Below, in pieces: positions 3,101 through 61,956 of a stretch of DNA of 64,000 nucleotides. Made by a program: the position numbers and the translations under genes. This DNA is from a virus. The DNA is taken from the IMG/VR virus record IMGVR_UViG_3300020050_010026, positions 3,980-67,979 of that record, one strand, 5' to 3'. Within the stretch, counting starts at the first letter, position 1; the number at the start of each line of letters is the position of its first letter. A model generated the notes under the pieces. It worked only from the letters and a program-made list of their open reading frames with translations, did not search any database and had not been told where the DNA came from.

Positions 3101-6100
3101 TACGAAGATAAGACTTTAACAAAATCTGAAGAATTACAATTATCATTATGGTTAATAGATGCTTTTAAAAGAGTAACCAGATTGTATAATGAAAAAAATA
3201 CAAAAGAAGAAACCGAAACTTTAAATCAGGCTTATAGTAATTTAGAAATAATAGAATCTTTATTATATAATTTAAAAATAAATAAAAATGAAACAGTCCA
3301 AAAAGAAAGAAGTGATTCAAAAAATGAAATTACTATCTCTTCCGAAAAAACTAAAACAAAAACTTCAGAAGTAAATAATCAAGAACTTGAACAATTAAAA
3401 AAAGAAAAAGAAGATTTACTACAACAGATAAAAGAAGAAAGTCTTGTATTTAAGATGCCTGAAATAACTGAAGAAGAAAAAATAGATTCTGTACTACAAA
3501 CTAGCGAAGTTGCTGAAGTAGAAAAAGGAGTTCAAAATCTTATAAATGAAAGTTTAGATGATGAAGGTAATCCAACAATAAGCCAAGAAGAATTCAATGC
3601 TTATATGGAACAACAAGATATTCCAGAAGAAGTAAAAGATGCTGTTGTACTTTTAAATGAAGAACAACTTAATACATTACCTACACAAGAAGTAATAGAT
3701 AATAAAGTAGAACTTATTAAAACTGAACTTGAAGGTGTTGATGAAAAAGATATAACTGAAGACGATTCTATTCATAAAGAAGAAGATGAAGATGTAGCTA
3801 ATTCATTTACAAATAGTAAAGAAGTTATTGAACCTGAACCTGAAAATAATTCATTAGGTCATAAAATTCAGAATAAAATTACAGAAGCTTTAGAGAAAAT
3901 TTATAAAATATTTGAAAAAACTCCAAGAGATAAAAGAGATGATAAAGTTACTTTTAGTTTAGGTGATTTCATTAATAACGATACAGTTAAAGATATTTGG
4001 GATAATTTTTTAAAAACTGGTAAAATTGATAAATCAGGTATTAAATGGTTAGAAGAATATTTACCAATAAAAGTTACCTTAACTAACGGAAAAGTAGAAG
4101 GTTCATCATTTTTAAAATCTAAAAAAGGCTCTCCTAATTTTGAAAGTTATGAATTACCTTTAAGAAAAGCGATTGTAAAAGCTTTAATTGAAAATAAAGG
4201 TGATTTTACTAAATTTGAAGGTTCGGTCCAAGGGCAAGGTAAAGGTAAGTTAAATTTAGATAATGCGAGTACACAAAATAATGTATTAGATATTAGTGTA
4301 CTTAAAGGAATGAAAAAACCTGAATTATTAAAATATCTTAAAGAAAATACTTATATTGTAAATCACGATAAACAATTAGTTCATGCTGAAACAGGACAAA
4401 AATCTATAGAAAGTTTTTTTAATGTTATAAAATCTTTTCATAGTGGAGATGTATTTTTAGTATTTACTAGACCTAATGGACAGAAAGTTCCTATTAAATT
4501 AAATAATAAAAGAATTACTCAAGAAAAGGCTGAAGCAACTGTTAAATTATTAGCTTTACTTTCTAATACAATTAAAACAAATCAATCAGATATTGTTTTA
4601 AATGATAAAGATTTCAAAAACTTTTTAAAAGATAATGTTGGAGAATTTTACTATAATCAATTAGAATTTGAAATAAATTTTTCTAAAAAAAATAATAATA
4701 AAACAAGATTAGAAGAAATAATTAATTATATTACCTATATTCAAAATAATAATAATATTAGTAAATTATTTATAGACAATAATGGAGATTTAACAATAGG
4801 TAGATTAATTCAAAAAGTTAATGAAGATTTACAAGTTGAAAATAATGATTATGATAAAAACCTAACAGCGATTGGTTTTAGAGGTTTTGAAGGTCAAAAT
4901 ATAGAATCTTTAATTAGTAATGAATTAGATGAAAACGCACAAGCTAGATTTAATCATTTGGTTAGATTTATTATGTACAAAAAAACTAATATTATTGCTG
5001 ATAAATTTACTGATGATAATTATATAGAACATGTTTTTGGTATTGGTGAAAATAAACAAAGTCTAGTTAGCACTAATGTTTCAGTAGATAAAGATATATT
5101 TGGAGGTTATAGTGATATATTTCTTAACAATGAAGTTACTACTTTAGAAGATGGTAAAGCTAAAGCTAAAGAATTAAAAGAAATTGAAAACACTGAAATA
5201 CCTTTAGCTAAAGAAGTTGTTTATAATGAACCTACATCTACTACTCAATCTGAAATAGAAGTTCAAAAAGCTGATATACTACAAAAAAAGAAAGAAAGGT
5301 TAGCAAACGTTAAACCTATGTATCATCATACAAATGTTGATACTAAAGACTTTAACTTTAATAATTTTCAAAGAGGGAATAAACAAGTTAGTCAATTTGG
5401 TGATGGTTTAAACGCATCATCAAATACCACTTCATTTCTAGTTAGTAGATATGGTAAACCAATACAAGGTGAAGTCAATGATGCTGATTTTGTTAAAATA
5501 GATGCTTCAAAAACTGAAAAAGAAGTATATGAAGAATTAAAAAAACAAGGTTATATATTTTCTGAGGTTCATGATACTAATGATGTTTTATCTGAAGTAC
5601 CTGGAGCAGCTATGGAGTTATTTACAGATTTTCAAAAGTCTAATCCAAATGTAAAAGGTGTTCGAGTAAGTAATCATATTATAGGTAATACTAAAGTTGC
5701 ACCATTTTATGTAATATATGATGCTAAATCATTTTATGGTCAAGGAGCTTTAAGTAAAAAAATTGAACAAGAAAGTAATGCAGAATTAGCTGCTTTAGAA
5801 AGTAAACCTAAAATTAATTTAGAAGATAAAAAAGCTGATATAGAAAGAAGAAGACAAGAAGAATTAAATGAAGAAAGTTATAGAATACCTATAGCAAAAG
5901 AAAGCAAAACATTTGTTGATGAAAATGGTACTAATTTAAAAATAACCATAACAACTTTTAAAAACGGTTCAAAAGTTTCACAAACAACTAATTTGGATAA
6001 TGGAGTTGTAACACCTAAGGAGTCTTATCCAAAAGAATTAGATAATGCTAAAATATATAACGCTGAGTCAGGAACTGAAATTAAGTTAGATGATACTAGA

Positions 6101-40388: not shown

Positions 40389-40491
40389 AAGTTAAGACAG
40401 GATTCGAACCTGTAAGATATTGACCGTATCAAGCTCTTAATATAGTTTATCATTCTATAGAACTTTGTGTTTACCATTCCACCACTTAACT
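40389..40491 (-). tRNA. tRNA-like gene, atypical (103 nt): perfect 7-bp acceptor and canonical T-arm, long extra hairpin, non-canonical anticodon region
   Basis: Minus-strand read AGTTAAG…CAGG-TTCGAAT-CCTG-T-CTTAACT. Acceptor 7/7 bp, T-loop TTCGAAT, 3-bp D-stem GTG/CAC with a GG-containing D-loop. A 5-bp stem TATAG/CTATA has a 9-nt loop. A about 25-nt extra arm forms a 9-bp hairpin (type-II-like). No encoded CCA. Confidence 0.4.
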
Positions 40492-42133: not shown

Positions 42134-42383
42134 TTATTTTCTAATACTTTTTATAAAATTACACACTTTATGTAATTTTTCACCATCATTTGGTAAAGGT
42201 AGTTCTTTAAAATAATTTACTGCACCATCAAAATATAATGGACAAATAGTTCCACCACCGCCTTCTCGTCCTCCTAAGATTTCAAGGAATCTAATATTAT
42301 CTTTAAAAAATGTAACATCATAACCTAAATACTCTGGTATTTCATGTCTAAAAGGTGAAAACAATCCAACAACAACATTGGCC
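42134..42383 (-). CDS. DnaB/gp4-like replicative helicase, exon C (3' exon)
   Basis: ANVVVGLFSPFRHE…EILGGREGGGGTICPLYFDG aligns to DnaB …DADLIMFIYRDE…IIIGKQRNGPIGTV. The ORF caller's 'M' is a TTG coinciding with the intron omega-G, so it is not a real start. Confidence 0.6.
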
Positions 42384-43366
42384 AATATGTTATCTCATAG
42401 GCTCTTTATCCTATGATTCTATATGTTACCATATAGTTCAGACTATATCTTCAGTACCGTGTACTGCTGGGATTTCGTGGATATATTATATTCTGTAATA
42501 AATGTGAGAGCCTCACACTTTTGATTGTTTTACTCGACACATACTTTTCGTATTGGTTTATATCAGCCAAACGCCTGCATCAGGTTCTACTCTCACATTA
42601 TTACAGTTTCAATATCTAGTCGTTCGACCTTCTATAATCATTTAAATTATAGCTTGGTACGGGATTGTCCTATTAGGATATTCCCCGTTTAACCCAGTTA
42701 CGTGACACATTTATTTTGGAAGTTTATATAACATTGTAGGATGTATATGTTCAATAACTAATTCTTTAAATGTATTATAAAATTTAGCAGGAAGATAAAT
42801 TTTATTATCTGACATTATATTAAAACGAATTTTAAATTTATCAAATAAAAAGTCTATAAAATCTTCAAGTTCTATTTTATTAAAACAATTTGTAGAAATC
42901 ATTATTGAATGAGATGTTTTATAACCATCATCCATAAACATTACAGCTAAAGATAATTCATTAAAATAGGAATATATCCCTTTAGATATAACCTTTTTTT
43001 TATCTTTATAAAACATGTGATACAACTGTAATAATTCTTTTTTATTACAAGTTTCTAAAGTAGCAGACGTATAAAACTTACCATTTCTTTTATCTGGTGT
43101 TTTTCTTGTCCATATTTTAAATTTTGGAGATAATGATTGAATCATTTCTTTTTTCCATTCACAATATTCTGCTTGTTTTGGACCATGATCACATTTAAAT
43201 CTTGGGTTTATACATGCTTTATCAATTCTTAAATGACCATCTCCTAAGACGCATCCTATTAAAAATTGAATTTCTTTTTTAGGTAAATTCATATTTTATA
43301 TATTTTAAAATACAAAGATACAAAAAATATTCCACATTTCCTAATGTTTTTTAACTTTTTTTGCCT
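42384..43366 (-). mobile_element. Group I self-splicing intron (983 nt) carrying a LAGLIDADG homing-endonuclease ORF
   Basis: Minus-strand core elements: P4/P5-like ACGGGGAAT…AATCCCG; P7 5' GGTCGAACGACTAG; P7 3' GAAGATATAGTCTGAAC (the conserved 'AAGAUAUAGUC' S element). Exon 1 ends in U (…CAACGTGAT|). Omega-G at 42384. Joining restores …ETQRD-ANVVVGLF…, co-linear with DnaB. Confidence 0.75.
42711..43292 (-). CDS. LAGLIDADG homing endonuclease (double-motif, intron-encoded)
   Basis: Two LAGLIDADG motifs: LIGCVLGDGHL and LAVMFMDDGYK. Located inside the group I intron. Confidence 0.8.
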   Translation of the reverse strand: MNLPKKEIQFLIGCVLGDGHLRIDKACINPRFKCDHGPKQAEYCEWKKEMIQSLSPKFKIWTRKTPDKRNGKFYTSATLETCNKKELLQLYHMFYKDKKKVISKGIYSYFNELSLAVMFMDDGYKTSHSIMISTNCFNKIELEDFIDFLFDKFKIRFNIMSDNKIYLPAKFYNTFKELVIEHIHPTMLYKLPK

Positions 43367-44056
43367 ATCACGTTGGGTTTCTTTGTTTCCAGCTAGACCA
43401 TCTAATGTTGGTTTTAATTTGTTATATTTTTTATTTTCAATTGATTCTTGAGCAGCAGCTTGTTGTTGTATAACGACAGGTATGTATTTGAATCTATTAC
43501 GAAGTTTAATTAAATAATCTGAACTTAATTTTCCTATTGATTCATGTAATGTCATAGGTATTCCCGTATCATAATTTTTTTCAGGACTAATAAGTCCAAT
43601 ATGATCTATCATTACAATTACATATTCCTCAGGATTATTAGGTTCATAATAATCTTCAACTTCTATTGCTTTACCTTCTATAGTAATAGTTCTATAATGA
43701 ACTTTACCATTAGCTAAAGCATATTTTCGTACTAAATTGTAAATGCCGTATGGATTTCTCACATCATCGACAAATTCAACAATTTCTTCAATCTTATTAA
43801 AATATTCTTTATATTTTTCTATTACTTCTAAAACTTCTTGAGGTAAAATATTATCTGCTTTTGTACTTTTTAATTGAGTTGGACTCAATCTAATACCTTC
43901 TTTAATATATAAAATATTAGAGAATGCTGACAACATCTTTTCTTCTTTACTAATTTCTAATGTAAAATAGAATATTTTTAATTTAATATCTAAGTTATTA
44001 TCAATTACTTGTTGAATTGTATTGTATAAAAATAAGTAATCTGCAATTTGTGTTTT
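43367..44056 (-). CDS. DnaB/gp4-like replicative helicase, exon B (middle exon)
   Basis: The frame is open from a TAA at 44060-62. KTQIADYLF…IFYFTLEISKEEKMLSAF aligns to DnaB GKT-TFAMNL…LIFSLEMPSEQIMMRSL (H1a). YVIVMIDHIGLI is Walker B/H2. SIGKLSSDYLIKLRNRFKYIPVVIQQQAAAQ aligns to EISRSLKALAKELNVPVVALSQLNR (H4). The ATG at 43936 is an internal Met. Confidence 0.65.
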
Positions 44057-44071
44057 CGTTTAATAAAATTA

Positions 44072-44527
44072 TCATATTAAACATTGTTCTTCTGAAAAGC
44101 CCATTAATCCCATTAAATCATAATAAGAATATTTTCCTTTCCCTTTATTATTTAGTTTTGATTCACTATTATTATAATTATATAAATATTTATATTTATT
44201 ACTTGAATTCGACATATATATGATATTCATAAATACCCATTTATTTATATCAGTACAATATAATAATTTTAATTTTTTATTGTATCGTAATAGTTTTTCA
44301 ATTTGTTTAGCTAAATGTTTTTCTGAACAATTTGGATAATATGTTTTAATTACAGTGTGTAAATCTTCAAAACTTCTATTTGCTTGAAAACACTGTGTTT
44401 CTGTTAAATTAATATCAAAGTAAGTTTTTTTAAATTTAAAATCTACTTTGTTCATTTGATAACATTTTTTTAAAAACGTAGTAACTCTTTCTCCCTTTTT
44501 TCTTTCTACATCTACGTATAATTTCAT
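44072..44527 (-). CDS. hypothetical protein, family 1 (paralog of 46034-46462); intron-associated
   Basis: Shares …TETQCFQANRSFEDLHTV…LLYCTDINKWVF…YSYYDLMGLMG with the paralog …TIEQCKSTANRSITDLHRI…LVWCTQINKPVL…YSLKDYEEIMKK. Confidence 0.45.
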   Translation of the reverse strand: MKLYVDVERKKGERVTTFLKKCYQMNKVDFKFKKTYFDINLTETQCFQANRSFEDLHTVIKTYYPNCSEKHLAKQIEKLLRYNKKLKLLYCTDINKWVFMNIIYMSNSSNKYKYLYNYNNSESKLNNKGKGKYSYYDLMGLMGFSEEQCLI

Positions 44528-44550
44528 TTTCTATAATTTAATAATTAAAT

Positions 44551-45156
44551 TTATTGTTGATTTATAATACCATACCATAATTTAATTTGATTACCGGAAT
44601 TTGGATTAAAAAACCATTCACTATTTGATGTTGATTCTTCATCTAAAATTGTATAATAATCTTCAAAATCTTCTTGAAAATTTGTTGAAAACATCCACAT
44701 TCCTTTAGAAGTTTCTCTATCTATCCAATAGTTTATAACTTTTAAAAATAATGCTTGTTTTAATTCAAGTAAATCATCTTCATCGGTATTTACAAATTCA
44801 TCATTTTCAATATGATTTATTAAGTTATTAAGACCTTCAAATCTAACAATTCCACAAGAAAACTCGTTATTAGAATTTCTAGTTAAATTTACAGTTGTTA
44901 CTTTATCAATATTATTGATATCTATATAACTTAATTGATTATTTTGATAAACTATTGAATTTATACAATCCAATTCGGTTCTTAATATAGGTGTTGGTAT
45001 TGTAGAAGGTTCATCTTCAAATAATGATGAATGAAATCTTACGTTTTTACCATTATCATTAATGATTCTAATATAATCATCTTCTTCTAATAACACTTCG
45101 TAGATTTTACCTTCTGTTAATTTATAGTTTTTAGCGTTTTTGCAAATTTTATTCAT
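44551..45156 (-). CDS. hypothetical protein (intron-internal ORF)
   Basis: 201-aa ORF immediately 3' of the internal group I core; no recognisable nuclease motif. Confidence 0.4.
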   Translation of the reverse strand: MNKICKNAKNYKLTEGKIYEVLLEEDDYIRIINDNGKNVRFHSSLFEDEPSTIPTPILRTELDCINSIVYQNNQLSYIDINNIDKVTTVNLTRNSNNEFSCGIVRFEGLNNLINHIENDEFVNTDEDDLLELKQALFLKVINYWIDRETSKGMWMFSTNFQEDFEDYYTILDEESTSNSEWFFNPNSGNQIKLWYGIINQQ

Positions 45157-45184
45157 TTAATTTCTAAATTTAATATTTATATTT

Positions 45185-45300
45185 ATAGTCTAGACTATCT
45201 CATCATCCCATAAGGATGCCGGACGCTGTGGACTGATCGTAATCTTCCTAGTCGTTACACCTTCATCAGTCTTCCCTGAAGCTTGGCACGGTATTATCTA
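45185..45300 (-). ncRNA. Group I intron catalytic-core-like element (P6-P7-P8-P7'-P9), homologous to the core of the LAGLIDADG intron
   Basis: Minus strand: CCGTGCCAAGCTTCAGGGAAGACTGATGAAGGTGTAACGACTAGGAAGATT…GATGAGATAGTCTAGACTAT. Parallels TACCAAGCT…GAAGGTCGAACGACTAGATATT…GAAGATATAGTCTGAACTAT of intron 42384-43366. GC-rich island between two ORFs. Confidence 0.55.
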
Positions 45301-45987
45301 CTTAAAAACATGAAGTAAATATTTTTCAGCAGCTTTAAAATCTTTTGCTTTTAAAAAATTAAAAATAATTTTCTTTTCTTTTTTAAAATTTGAAGATGTT
45401 TTATAATCAAAAATATTATTATACAAACCATTCGTTTTCATATGATATTCTCCAAATATATTTTTAAAACTTTTTAAAGTTTTATATGGTTTATTAAGAT
45501 ATATTTTAGGACTATATCCAGAAGGATCGTAAAATCCATCCATACTTATATTATAATATGGTATTATTGTTTGTAAATTATTAAAATCATATTCTTTTGA
45601 ATTATAATAATGAGATAGTAAAAATGCATTTTGTATTTTTACACCTTCTTTATTCATAATTAAAGTATCTTCTAATATTTTTTTAATATTTTTATATCTA
45701 ACATATCTACAAATTCTAAAGAAAAAAATTTGTTGAGTTTCAAATTCACTTTCAAATTCAAAACTATTTTTTCTAACATTTGTTATTTTTGTTTTAAATC
45801 TAAATTTTTTAATAATTTTAATCAACAAAGATATATCGGTTTCATCATCTGAATAAAATAAATGTTTTAATCCTTCTTTATATCCATTACCACAAGACAT
45901 ATTTTGAATATAATAATTACAATTTAACATTTTTTCACCTCTTATTTTGTAAGTACCACTTTTTAATTTTCTTAAATATTTATTCAT
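45298..45987 (-). CDS. hypothetical protein (intron-internal ORF)
   Basis: 229-aa ORF whose stop abuts the group I core element. Confidence 0.4.
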   Translation of the reverse strand: MNKYLRKLKSGTYKIRGEKMLNCNYYIQNMSCGNGYKEGLKHLFYSDDETDISLLIKIIKKFRFKTKITNVRKNSFEFESEFETQQIFFFRICRYVRYKNIKKILEDTLIMNKEGVKIQNAFLLSHYYNSKEYDFNNLQTIIPYYNISMDGFYDPSGYSPKIYLNKPYKTLKSFKNIFGEYHMKTNGLYNNIFDYKTSSNFKKEKKIIFNFLKAKDFKAAEKYLLHVFK

Positions 45988-46033
45988 TTTTTAAATAGAT
46001 TTTCACCGTTTTCATCCGGTTTAATAATAATTA

Positions 46034-46462
46034 TCATAATTTTTTCATAATTTCTTCATAATCTTTTAAGGAATAACCATCTACTCCTTTTTTAGTAAAA
46101 TAATTATCTTTACTATACTTACTTATCCATTCAGAGGTTTTATTATTTACAAATTTTAAAACTGGTTTATTTATTTGAGTACACCATACCAATATAATTG
46201 ATTTGTCCTCATCCATAAATTGTTTTACAATTTTAATAACTTGTTCTAAACTTGTTTTTGGAAATCTAGATTGTACTATTCTATGTAAATCTGTAATACT
46301 TCTATTAGCTGTTGATTTACATTGTTCAATAGTACATTCTGGATCTGAATAAGAAATGTAAGCTTTACCTCTTAAAAAATACCTAATAAATTGTTTTCTT
46401 GTACTAGTTAAAGGTATGCTATTTAAAGAAACATAAATTAATTCTTGATTGTTTTGATTCAT
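46034..46462 (-). CDS. hypothetical protein, family 1 (paralog of 44072-44527); intron-associated
   Basis: See the paralog alignment under 44072-44527. Confidence 0.45.
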   Translation of the reverse strand: MNQNNQELIYVSLNSIPLTSTRKQFIRYFLRGKAYISYSDPECTIEQCKSTANRSITDLHRIVQSRFPKTSLEQVIKIVKQFMDEDKSIILVWCTQINKPVLKFVNNKTSEWISKYSKDNYFTKKGVDGYSLKDYEEIMKKL

Positions 46463-46537
46463 GTTTTTATATTTTTTTTTATTTTGTAAAATTATTATTT
46501 TTACATCTAAATATTACTATTTAGCTGGGCAAAATTT

Positions 46538-46715
46538 TACCCACTTTACTATTTGCAGTCACATTATAATATTTTCCTTGTTCTATACCTGGATTTTCTT
46601 CTTCAAATCTAGGTAATCCCCAAGGAATACAATTTATTTTACCTGAAAGAATTCTTTCACGTCGCTCTACTAAAGTGTTAAACACTCTACTGTATAAACT
46701 ATTTTGTTCTGTCAT
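46538..46715 (-). CDS. DnaB/gp4-like replicative helicase, exon A (5' exon; ends inside Walker A)
   Basis: MTEQNSLYSRVFNTLVERRERILSGKINCIPWGLPRFEEENPGIEQGKYYNVTANSKVG(K) corresponds to DnaB …TG(F)xxLD…GLxPGDLIIVAARPSMGK and T7 gp4 …VIMVTSGSGMGKS. The ORF runs 4 codons past the GK into the intervening sequence before a stop. Confidence 0.55.
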
Positions 46716-59913: not shown

Positions 59914-60577
59914 AATGTTGTTAGTTTTAGTTTGTTATTGATATAATAAAAGAAATAGGTATTGTTTTTTCAAACTTTTTATCATCAAAAATAACATTTA
60001 CAGTATTAGTTTTATTGCAAAATGATATTTTATCTATTTTTGATATTATACCAGAATTATTCCATTCATCTTTATATTTTAATATCATAATTAGTTAAGT
60101 TTTAAACAGTTATTTAAATCAATAGTATTCCAAATATGTACATAAGTAAATTCACCATTTGGAAACCATAGTCTAAGATATTGAGGATTGCTCATAATTA
60201 AAATATTAAAAATAATGTTTCAATTATTACAATACAAATTAAAAATCTAATAGACATGTTAGCATTTTGTAATTGTATTTCTAATGGTAATTTTTTGTAT
60301 TCTGAATTTTTCATAATAGTTAATTGTTAGTTAATAATTTTTTAATGTTCAATAATAAAAAATAAGGGTCTAGATGTAAAAGACGGATTCAATATCTCTA
60401 ACATTTACGAAGACCCTTATTTTCGTTCTATTTAAGTGAGTGGCGTACTGCTCACAAATTTCTATTATATCATATAGACGGAGTGACTACGGGTTAATTT
60501 GTAAACAAATCGTTCCGACTGATGACCGTAACTGATAATATAATTTCATTCTCTGCCATTTTAGAGATTAAATATAG

Positions 60578-60650
60578 GGTGATAGGTGAGGGTCGAACTC
60601 ACATTTTTCTGAACCACAATCAGAGGCTTTACCCTTAAGCTACAATCACC
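60578..60650 (-). tRNA. tRNA-His (anticodon GTG) with 5' G-1
   Basis: Minus strand: g-GTGATTG-TA-GCTT-AAGGGTA-AAGC-C-TCTGA-TTGTGGT-TCAGA-AAAAT-GTGAG-TTCGACC-CTCAC-CTATCAC-C. All four stems pair. Anticodon loop is U-U-GUG-G-U. Extra 5' G opposite the C73 discriminator (His identity). Confidence 0.8.
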
Positions 60651-60680
60651 ATGTAAAAATATAAAAGAATTATATTTTTG

Positions 60681-60752
60681 TATTTCCAGAGAGAATTGAA
60701 CTCTCGTTTTTAGGTTGAAAACCTAATGTCCTAACCACTAGACGATGGGAAC
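60681..60752 (-). tRNA. tRNA-Glu (anticodon TTC)
   Basis: Minus strand: GTTCCCA-TC-GTCT-AGTGGTTAGG-ACAT-TTAGG-TTTTCAA-CCTAA-AAAC-GAGAG-TTCAATT-CTCTC-TGGAAAT-A. Resembles the bacterial tRNA-Glu D-arm (TCGTCTAGTGGTTAGGAC). One acceptor mismatch. Confidence 0.7.
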
Positions 60753-60811
60753 GGTTTCTGTATGCTTTACGTAAAGCTATGGTAGTACAGACACTATTAT
60801 TCCATTATTCT

Positions 60812-60938
60812 GTGGAGGTGCCGGCATCGAAACCGGGTCCATAAACAATTTCAATACAATAATATATTACAGCTTAGTTATAGATTTACGTGTTTAACTA
60901 CACATAGGTCAACTGATTAATCAGAATGACTCCACCAC
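60812..60938 (-). other. tRNA-like / hairpin-rich element (about 125 nt) of uncertain nature
   Basis: 3' part CCGG-TTTCGAT-GCCGG-CACCTCC-A resembles a T-arm plus acceptor. The 5' part GGAGTC…CTGATTAATCAG… forms a long imperfect palindrome. No canonical cloverleaf found. Confidence 0.25.
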
Positions 60939-61956
60939 TTCATTTAATCTAATGAAGAAATCTTAAAACAACTTAAAATTAAGCAGCAATTAATTCTTGT
61001 TTCCAAGAAAAATCACCACATATCACATCATTATTTAAAATGTTGTGAACTACTTCCATATTTGCTCTAACTTGAGCGTTTGTATTCTTGTCATTTATTA
61101 ATTCACCTTAGTTTACAGTTATCTCTCTGGCTGATTATTATATTTACTACTATCTATGTCAAATCCTGTCACCCCCTTAAAATAATCTCATTTTGATAGA
61201 ATGTGATTAGTATAACTATTTTCAATATCTTTATATAAATGATGTCACGAGAAACGTGCTTCTCTTACCCTATAGCGTACTAGGAGCATTTATAAAGGTA
61301 TTAAATGTTTAACCTATTTGAGAGTTTTATCATTGCAACTCACAAGTGTTTTCTTTTCTTCAGAAACCAATAGCACCCATTTAACATTGGGTACACCATG
61401 TTTTTATAAAATCACTTGTCCAAATTCTAGTGGAATGGTTACTATGTTGACGTACTTACAACACATGAACATCTTTACAATAAACACAACTGCTAGTACA
61501 GTTTATAATTTGGTGTGCGTACCTAATTCTCCACCTTCATTATTATTTATCTTCAAGCAAGTGATTATATTAAAAACATTGAAAAATACTAGGATTACTC
61601 CTTGGGTTTGCAATGGGTCGAACCCATACTACACACCTCAATCTTCTGTCAATTCAGAAGTAGTATCTTTTTATAAATTATACACCCTATGCGTGCATCA
61701 CATCTTTTTAGCACTTAATGTAGGTAAAATCTTATTATACATTATTCTTATGATTTATAAAATTCAATGTTTAACTTTTAATTTAATTTTGTTTATTACA
61801 ATCTTTACAATTTAAAAATTCTTTTTCATTTCCATGAATGATTTTATTAGTATTACAAAACCATTTCTTTTCATACGGAATAAATATTTCTTTAAAATCT
61901 TTATATTTATACAAACATACAAAAAACAATATCACGCAACTAAAAGGAACAAAACA

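Follow-up and report, generated by a model that had tools for sequence, protein, structure and literature searches.

The window, by which we mean the whole 64,000-nt stretch of viral DNA that was analyzed, has a G+C content of 24.8%, and its best DNA matches are two crAss-like phages, Cellulophaga phage phi14:2 and the uncultured phage cr108_1 (both Steigviridae/Asinivirinae). The genes around the intron described here lie on the minus strand. Its host gene encodes a DnaB-like replicative helicase, one predicted 371-aa protein made from three exons (46715-46539, 44056-43367, and 42382-42134), and holds at least two introns, the larger one upstream, in the P-loop. The features are given below in 5' to 3' order of the minus strand, with the evidence for each in brackets.

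46539..46715, minus strand: helicase exon 1, 59 codons, ending ...ANSKVG inside the Walker A motif/P-loop (tblastn with the cr108_1 helicase)
44057..46538, minus strand: upstream group I intron A, 2482 nt, with four ORFs inside it at 46462-46034, 45987-45298, 45156-44551, and 44527-44072 (splice-site features, L012 homology)
43367..44056, minus strand: helicase exon 2, 230 codons, KTQIAD...ETQRD (alignment to intron-less helicases)
42383..43366, minus strand: group I intron (exact stretch missing from L005, L007, L025, L006, and L008; Rfam match; covariation)
43293..43366, minus strand: intron 5' leader, first part of the P1 loop, 17.6% G+C (sequence and ORF list)
42711..43292, minus strand: ORF for an I-SceI-type homing endonuclease of 193 aa with two LAGLIDADG motifs (Pfam, PDB, and PHROG matches)
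42700..42706, minus strand: internal guide GUCACGU, P1 3' strand (pairs with the exon end over 7 bp and places U.G at the splice site)
42659..42697, minus strand: P3 5' strand CUGGG (42697-42693), P4 ACGGGG/UCCCGU, P5 UCCU/AGGA (Rfam alignment, covariation)
42628..42657, minus strand: P6 (CC/GG) and P6a (CUAUAAU/AUUAUAG) (covariation)
42617..42621, minus strand: P7 5' strand GACUA, pairing with UAGUC at 42445-42441 (invariant in 12 introns)
42480..42616, minus strand: expanded P7.1/P7.2, 137 nt (one long hairpin, MFE -36 kcal/mol)
42441..42471, minus strand: P3 3' strand CCCAG (42471-42467), P8 CAGUAC/GUACUG, J8/7, and P7 3' strand (GAAGAUAUAGUC) (Rfam alignment, covariation)
42395..42436, minus strand: P9 (CUAUAUG/CAUAUAG) and P9.1 (UCAUAGG/CCUAUGA) with the conserved loop AUAAAGAG (covariation)
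42383..42394, minus strand: 3' tail GAUAACAUAUUG, whose last base is the terminal G at 42383 (kept in at least 120 viral contigs)
42134..42382, minus strand: helicase exon 3, ANVVVGLFSPF...SIRK, 82 codons and stop (alignment to intron-less helicases)

The downstream element comprises 984 nt (window 43366..42383, minus strand) and splits the helicase at ...TQRD/ANVV..., the slash marking the insertion point. On the minus strand, the exon ends in ...ACC CAA CGT GAT, the element opens with AGGCAAAAAAAG, and 74 nt precede the ATG of the 193-aa ORF, after which the sequence runs TAA ATGT GUCACGU AA CUGGG ... GAUAACAUAUUG / GCC AAT GTT .... The first-pass annotation had placed the intron at 42384-43366 (983 nt); its 5' end at 43366 was exact, while the 3' end moves by one position to the terminal G at 42383, because both the reading frame (...CGT GAT / GCC AAT...) and the blastn break points in five intron-less relatives fall there. 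The boundaries thereby read U / ... G, which is what group I chemistry calls for. In blastn alignments to the five closest intron-less relatives, window positions 43367 and 42382 correspond to locus positions 4690 and 4691, with no gap in the relative. The helicase proteins of these relatives are 90-96% identical to that of the window, their downstream flanks are 94-96% identical in four cases and about 85% in L008 (blastn), and for 60 nt to either side of the insertion site the joined exons have nearly the same sequence as L005 and L006. The element is a clean presence/absence polymorphism among close relatives. The joined exons also align without gaps to the intron-less helicases of phi14:2 (TQRDADVV; ...LTQRDADVVLGLFSPFRH at the junction) and cr108_1 (TFRDADLF; ...TTFRDADLFFGLYSPYRY), the break falls within the invariant ...RD/A... 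helicase motif, and the predicted ligated-exon junction reads CAACGUGAU-GCCAAUGUU (also written ...AACCCAACGUGAU-GCCAAUGUUGUU...). Pfam DnaB_C is matched, weakly (E 3.9e-5), by the spliced product only, the unspliced fragments giving no match, and both the P-loop (ANSKVGKT) and the ...QRDA... motif of the spliced product align to SPP1 G40P. These exon alignments and the DnaB_C match bear out the earlier assignment of a helicase as the host gene.

The guide starts 4 nt past the endonuclease stop codon, and P1 is formed by the last 7 nt of exon 2, ACGUGAU (43373-43367), with GUCACGU (42706-42700), placing the U43367.G42706 pair at the splice site; as the guide comes after the stop codon, the ORF together with the 74-nt leader makes up the P1 loop. 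The first-pass annotation had mentioned neither this position of the ORF nor the larger intron upstream. A guide-paired P1, the U.G at the 5' splice site and a terminal G (G42383), all expected of a group I intron, are thus present. The RNA motifs pointed out in the first-pass annotation were all recovered on the minus strand where it had placed them: P4 (ACGGGG…CCCG) as ACGGGG 42688-42683 with UCCCGU 42664-42659, the P7 5' strand as GACUA at 42621-42617 within GGTCGAACGACTAG, and the near-consensus element as the P7 3' element AAGATATAGTCTGAAC at about 42451-42436. Its description of this part as a GC-rich island is true in a relative sense, with 35.7% G+C in the 328 nt after the ORF against 24.8% in the window and 23.0% in the ORF, but not in an absolute one, since 35.7% is all that is reached. 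The P7.1/P7.2 extension that distinguishes subgroup IA occurs in its proper place between P7 and the P3 3' strand (42616-42480), measuring 137 nt here vs. 34–42 nt in most relatives. P2, also looked for in this subgroup between P1 and P3, is absent because only AA separates the guide from P3; the same applies to 9 of the 12 aligned relatives. By inspection, P10 with the 3' exon amounts to only about 2 bp (G.U, C-G), and in relatives it comprises 4–6 bp that follow their own 3' exons (e.g., UGUAAU with AUUACA in L104 and L188). The missing P2, the weak P10 and the closing of P1 over a loop of about 660 nt are points against the group I reading of this locus.

The Rfam Intron_gpI model (RF00028, curated gathering score 50 bits) matched window positions 42742-42419 over its full length (model 1-253) with 46.5 bits (E 2.6e-10) in a scan of 1.5 kb; P3, P4-P6, P7, P8, and P9 were aligned in order, with 137 extra nt between P7 and the P3 3' strand. 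At 46.5 vs. 50 bits the element falls short of group I membership by the curated score. Neither the whole-window scan at the gathering threshold nor a whole-window scan with a permissive E-value returned the intron, in the latter case because the filters are stricter at that scale. A search with the Rfam group I model had been suggested earlier as a check, and the answer is divided: a match in the 1.5-kb scan, below the cut-off, and none across the whole window. The lack of a covariance-model hit had also been named as refuting evidence; given that the gathering score is missed, a routine scan would here produce a false negative. Relatives do score above the cut-off (L048 56.6, L004 52.5, and L012 67.1 bits), and the L048 ribozyme, which is 86-93% identical to that of the window (90-92% for its two core halves), carries only 34 nt at the P7.1/7.2 position. 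Because L048, which lacks the long insert, and L004, which occupies the same site, both pass, the shortfall is best explained by the 137 nt inserted at P7.1/7.2 and by the lack of P2, rather than by a degraded core.

Covariation was assessed in 12 related introns with recognisable full cores. A plain MAFFT alignment of these cores misaligned P3'/P8 between two ribozyme types and was replaced by a final alignment that was hand-assembled from sequence-anchored, N-padded segments, with variable loops and P7.1/7.2 removed; pairs were counted for P1, P3, P4, P5, P6, P6a, P7, P8, P9, and P9.1. Standard pairs filled 92.8% of the paired cells, vs. 28–43% when the 3' partners were slid by 1–3 columns, changes on both sides were seen in 34 of 55 pairs, and none of 500 shuffles reached any of the observed covariation measures. 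Compensatory change was found in every helix but P7, which is invariant (P1, P3, P4, P5, P6a, P8, P9, and P9.1 covary), so that on this hand-assembled alignment the core helices P3–P9 are kept in the way group I introns require. As the first and last hairpin bases were taken, pairing is favoured in P8 and P9, whereas P1, P3, P4, P6a, and P9.1 are sequence-anchored and independent of this choice. Compensatory change has kept the core helices intact across diverged copies, which implies that the RNA is under selection. P1 tracks synonymous exon codons (CGUGAU/GUCACG, AGAGAU/GUCUCU or GUUUCU, CGAGAU/GUCUCG) in eight introns for which the host protein sets the 5' splice site, and this backs the position given to the guide. 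The conserved 3' domain AUAGUCYGAAC - P9 - P9.1 (loop AUAAAGAG) - GAUAACA...G recurs in at least 120 viral contigs and marks a large phage intron family.

These data also bear on a reading in which a free-standing endonuclease gene divides the helicase into two separately translated polypeptides, an intron-less invasion of the kind known from some split phage genes, and the RNA-like motifs are relics. The GenBank record of PhiCrAssBcn14 is annotated in just this manner, with two "replicative DNA helicase" CDSs around a hypothetical protein, and translation of an 83-aa ORF could in principle begin with the TTG at 42385. Yet the break lies inside the invariant ...RD/A... motif, the core helices are kept by compensatory changes, the guide follows the codon choice of the exon, and the ends of the element are the canonical U / ... 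G, all of which make a split gene highly improbable. We thus return to the intron, the reading favoured by its precise absence in close relatives, the seamless exon junction, the covariance-model match, and the strong covariation. Both the sequence and the comparison with relatives support the group I interpretation, with splicing predicted. On the whole, we put the probability that a mobile group I intron of phage-type subgroup IA interrupts the replicative helicase (DnaB-like) of this crAss-like phage (Crassvirales) at about 0.88.

The intron ORF (43292..42711) had been described as a double-motif LAGLIDADG protein, and this proved correct: LIGCVLGDGHL and LAVMFMDDGYK are both present, and Pfam LAGLIDADG_2 (PF03161) is matched with E 2.4e-31 (109 bits, cut-off 25) over profile positions 2-155 of 168. 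Together with the Rfam E-value of 2.6e-10, this is well outside what chance would give. The PDB matches extend over the whole length (mitochondrial intron endonuclease 6x1j, 1.7e-9; I-SceI, 2.7e-9), PHROG 11023 ("homing endonuclease with LAGLIDADG motif") is also hit, and the aspartates of both motifs align (...VLGDGHL and ...FMDDGYK vs. ...ILGDAYI and ...FMDDGGK in I-SceI), so that one chain holds two LAGLIDADG motifs with catalytic acidic residues. The frame of the upstream exon runs 25 codons into the intron, and its TGA overlaps the endonuclease ATG (ATGA, 43292-43289); this overlap would allow termination-reinitiation on unspliced RNA as a possibility and nothing firmer, because it is not conserved in L003. 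A promoter of its own for the endonuclease was considered on account of a Bacteroidetes-type -7 box (TAnnTTTG, 43320-43313) and rejected, the box not being enriched in the window (110 found, 136 expected). By eye, a TAnnTTTG box is also seen upstream of the ORF in L003 and L004.

Inteins are classically hosted by DnaB-type helicases (PMC4760082) and may contain LAGLIDADG domains, so an intein was weighed, together with a group II intron. An intein would be an in-frame insert with a Hint domain, and neither was found, the exon frame stopping after 25 codons; the group II reading has neither a reverse transcriptase nor an RNA match in its favour. Reading frames and domain content refute both, and we attach practically no weight to them. 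A less remote alternative, though still an unlikely one, is that the group I intron is competent for splicing while its endonuclease is no longer active, the element being fixed and vertically inherited and its ORF either decaying or serving as a maturase. In its favour, the ORF has 193 aa vs. 289–291 aa in the same-site relatives (L003, L004), lacking their N-terminal helix-turn-helix-like extension of about 100 aa, without which DNA binding may be reduced or lost; it is shorter than I-SceI (235–237 aa) as well, and LAGLIDADG maturases are known, one bacterial case included (PMC3984707). On the other hand, the ORF is uninterrupted, it covers PF03161 nearly end to end with both catalytic aspartates kept, and four contigs from three samples (one of 85 kb from a JGI metagenome, and short ones from Logan) encode the identical protein. 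The closest relatives lack the intron, a pattern into which recent gain or ongoing mobility fits better than old fixation. The preferred reading therefore remains that of a mobile intron with its endonuclease.

In order to place the intron among related phages, viral contigs were searched with the helicase alignment and the best 80 loci were compared. The intron is absent from 78 of these, including the five closest relatives, and a homologous intron with a LAGLIDADG ORF sits at the same codon junction in L003, L004, L152, L104, L118, and PhiCrAssBcn14; in L003 and L004 this is the ...TTRD/ANLV... junction of a crAss-like helicase. This is the distribution of a mobile intron, sporadic among close relatives and at the same site in distant hosts. 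The flanks gave no signal of co-conversion tracts, as they are nearly identical to those of the intron-less L005 and L006. The two parts of the intron have different nearest neighbours. L048 and L060 hold introns at a different site of the gene (TLE(I/M)/SKEE), and their ribozymes are 86-93% identical to that of the window per half (88-91% in the mini-core), with endonucleases at 36-37% and helicase exon DNA at 74-78%; these copies differ from that of the window mainly in the 7-nt guide, which is GUCUCUU. The same-site introns (L003, L004, L152, and others) have ribozymes at 61-67%, and the same-site endonucleases (L003, L004, PhiCrAssBcn14) are at 43-48%. The closest ribozymes are thus found at a different site of the same gene and the closest endonucleases at the same site, from which it would appear that the endonuclease goes with its target site while the ribozyme tracks something else. 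By the accepted view, ribozyme and endonuclease are separable mobile units, and the discordance fits it. It suggests retargeting of one ribozyme scaffold within a gene; the fuller scenario, in which the two parts have separate histories shaped by retargeting through the guide and by endonuclease swap, with the gene acting as a multi-site intron hotspot (at least four sites), is tentative, and we would rate it at somewhat below even odds.

The first-pass annotation had regarded a LAGLIDADG enzyme as uncommon in a phage intron. This agrees with a review in which phage introns mostly carry GIY-YIG, HNH, PD-(D/E)xK, or EDxHD enzymes (PMC3984707), and with the finding of an endonuclease homologue in 14 of 50,697 GenBank phage records, the best being four cultured Bacteroides phages, PhiCrAssBcn14-18. 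The view is right only in part, however: dense group I introns, including ones with LAGLIDADG enzymes, have already been described from crAss-like phages, where they interrupt core replication and structural genes (PMC7886860), and there is a PHROG family for such enzymes. Among the members of the intron family on viral metagenome contigs with enough upstream sequence, 15 of 102 have an I-SceI-like ORF on the same strand, and in 14 of these 15 the ORF ends 240–320 nt before the intron 3' end, about where the guide lies in the aligned cores. The element is real, cleanly bounded, and ordinary in kind.

The upstream 2.48-kb intron with its four ORFs is more unusual than the endonuclease intron. 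It has a U before the 5' splice site, a guide GCCCA that pairs with UGGGU, and a terminal G at 44057, together with a P2 hairpin, P3 (CCGGA/UCCGG), P4 (ACGGU/ACCGU), P6, P7 (GACUA/UAGUC), and P8; P5 (AUCUA/UAGAU) encloses ORF A2, and ORFs A3 and A4 lie in the P9 region. The predicted ligated junction is ...AAAGUGGGU-AAAACACAAAUU.... This intron gave no Rfam match, but its compact 761-nt homologue in L012 is the one that scored 67.1 bits on Intron_gpI, and P3 and P8 covary among relatives. Of the best 80 helicase loci, about 37 have an empty P-loop site (exon 1 is contiguous with exon 2 in about 37 homologues) and about 30 contain 0.76–3.6 kb there, with intron ORFs gained and lost loop by loop across the loci; in L005 and L008 a further intron, which carries a GIY-YIG enzyme, lies three codons upstream. 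The four ORFs of intron A show no resemblance to known endonucleases. Two of them, A1 and A4, are paralogues from a family that numbers 960 representatives and lacks a Pfam domain, and the model of A4 shows weak winged-helix resemblance only. Neither the odd tRNA-like gene nor the tmRNA was called by ARAGORN.

The steps of splicing and homing can be outlined from the anatomy of the downstream intron and established group I chemistry. The exon end ACGUGAU and the guide GUCACGU, some 660 nt further downstream, would come together as P1 around a loop with the endonuclease gene; exogenous guanosine bound in P7 would attack just behind the U of U.G; G42383, the terminal G, would then take the G site, and exon ligation would restore ...TQRD-ANVV.... 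Translation of the endonuclease and folding of P1 are probably mutually exclusive on one RNA molecule, because a ribosome ending the endonuclease ORF would cover the guide and P3. During co-infection, the 193-aa protein is expected to cut intron-less helicase alleles at ...CAACGTGAT/GCCAATGTT..., and repair of the cut allele would copy the intron in. The intron-less L005/L006 site is the candidate cleavage substrate (L005 allele: CAAAGAAACCCAACGTGATGCCAATGTTGTTGTTGG), which supplies a defined candidate endonuclease/target pair. For annotation, the consequence is that the helicase, both here and in cultured relatives like PhiCrAssBcn14, should be treated as one protein and not as fragments plus "hypothetical proteins", and that both helicase introns are missed by routine Rfam scans. 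The DnaB-like helicase is added to the crAss-like genes known with homing introns, and the loci compared form a natural series for intron site change and endonuclease swap (one ribozyme at two sites, and two ribozyme types sharing one site). What is generally understood about group I introns stays the same.

The nearest known systems are the crAss-like introns of Yutin et al. 2021 (PMC7886860), which come from the same virus order and are group I introns with endonuclease ORFs; the window, by its best matches, is nearest to Steigviridae/Asinivirinae relatives, and no description of the DnaB-like helicase, the RD/A site or the RNA structure was found in that work. The Bacteroides phages PhiCrAssBcn14-18 (OQ221549 and others) share the gene, the RD/A site, a LAGLIDADG ORF that is 48% identical, and a second intron in the P-loop, the same two-intron arrangement being seen in L004. 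The annotation order of PhiCrAssBcn14 (GIY-YIG nuclease, helicase, hypothetical protein, helicase) corresponds to such a two-intron gene with the introns unannotated. They differ in a ribozyme core that is only about 61-65% identical (L003/L004 type), in a 291-aa endonuclease with an extra N-terminal domain, and in a P-loop intron that carries a GIY-YIG enzyme instead of the four ORFs of intron A. Beyond crAss-like phages, the 3' domain of the intron has blastn matches in 61 Streptococcus and 25 Staphylococcus phage records. Phage IA2 introns (T4 td/nrdB/sunY, Twort, Streptococcus thermophilus phages) have P7.1/P7.2 between P7 and P3' and a conserved GAAGAUAUAGUCUGAAC element, and they share both of these, as well as homing by an intron-encoded endonuclease, with the intron described here. 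Their enzymes are of the GIY-YIG or HNH type and are placed in P6a, P9.1 or other loops, and P2 is present, whereas the enzyme of the window intron is of the LAGLIDADG type and sits in the P1 loop, and P2 is missing. I-SceI of the yeast mitochondrial LSU (omega) intron belongs to the same single-chain two-motif family (PF03161) and can be aligned end to end, but identity is about 25-30% by eye, and the ribozyme subgroup, the host gene, and the position of the ORF in the intron are different. The PhiPA3 intron endonuclease gp210 (PMC11620839) differs in phage, gene, and enzyme. Since an intron endonuclease can determine how a co-infection of related phages ends (PMC11620839), competition among crAss-like phages could be affected by introns that occur sporadically in an essential replication gene.

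Introns cluster in the helicase gene of crAss-like phages, a hotspot in which at least four separate positions are occupied across the window and the helicase homologues at loci L003-L084:

Site SK|VGK: occupied by GIY-YIG introns in L005 and L008.
Site G|KT: inserts of 0.76-3.6 kb in ~30 loci.
Site TLE(I/M)|SKEE: occupied in L048, L060, L080, and L081.
Site RD|A: occupied in the window (984-nt intron), L003, L004, and others.

In the window, the helicase gene carries a further intron upstream of the one at RD|A:

44057-46538, minus strand: second group I intron, 2482 nt, interrupting the helicase within the Walker A motif.

Its splice junctions read GGU|AAA...ACG|AAA, and its four ORFs are spread over three regions of the ribozyme (the P2-P3 interval, L5, and the P9 region), none of the four containing a known endonuclease domain. 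Rfam detection of both helicase introns varied with the length of the sequence scanned, as the 984-nt intron (42383-43366) was matched in the 1.5-kb scan only and the 2482-nt intron was detected in no scan; standard pipelines will yield fragment annotations for helicases with such introns.

Within the 984-nt intron, the exon frame continues past the splice site and ends at a stop codon that overlaps the start codon of the LAGLIDADG endonuclease (ATGA, 43289-43292, minus strand), an arrangement that would allow translational coupling of the two frames on unspliced RNA and that is not conserved in the homologous locus L003.

Two structured RNA genes were also matched by Rfam in the window, neither of which was called by ARAGORN:

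40389-40491, minus strand: tRNA-like gene, 103 nt (Rfam tRNA, 42 bits).
60810-61176, minus strand: tmRNA-like gene carried by the phage, scoring 56.7 bits against the Rfam tmRNA model (cut-off 47).

The tRNA-like gene has a long variable arm and an ambiguous anticodon, and the ~25 nt standing in place of the expected 7-nt anticodon loop suggest an 18-nt insert or intron. The match to the tmRNA model is of low confidence in its middle part; the gene adjoins tRNA-His and tRNA-Glu (60577-60752).

The same two-intron helicase is found in a cultured relative, Bacteroides phage PhiCrAssBcn14 (L205; OQ221549.1, 86936-92487), where the locus is annotated, in order, as GIY-YIG nuclease, helicase, hypothetical protein, and helicase, with no intron features, and this phage would serve as a ready-made experimental system.
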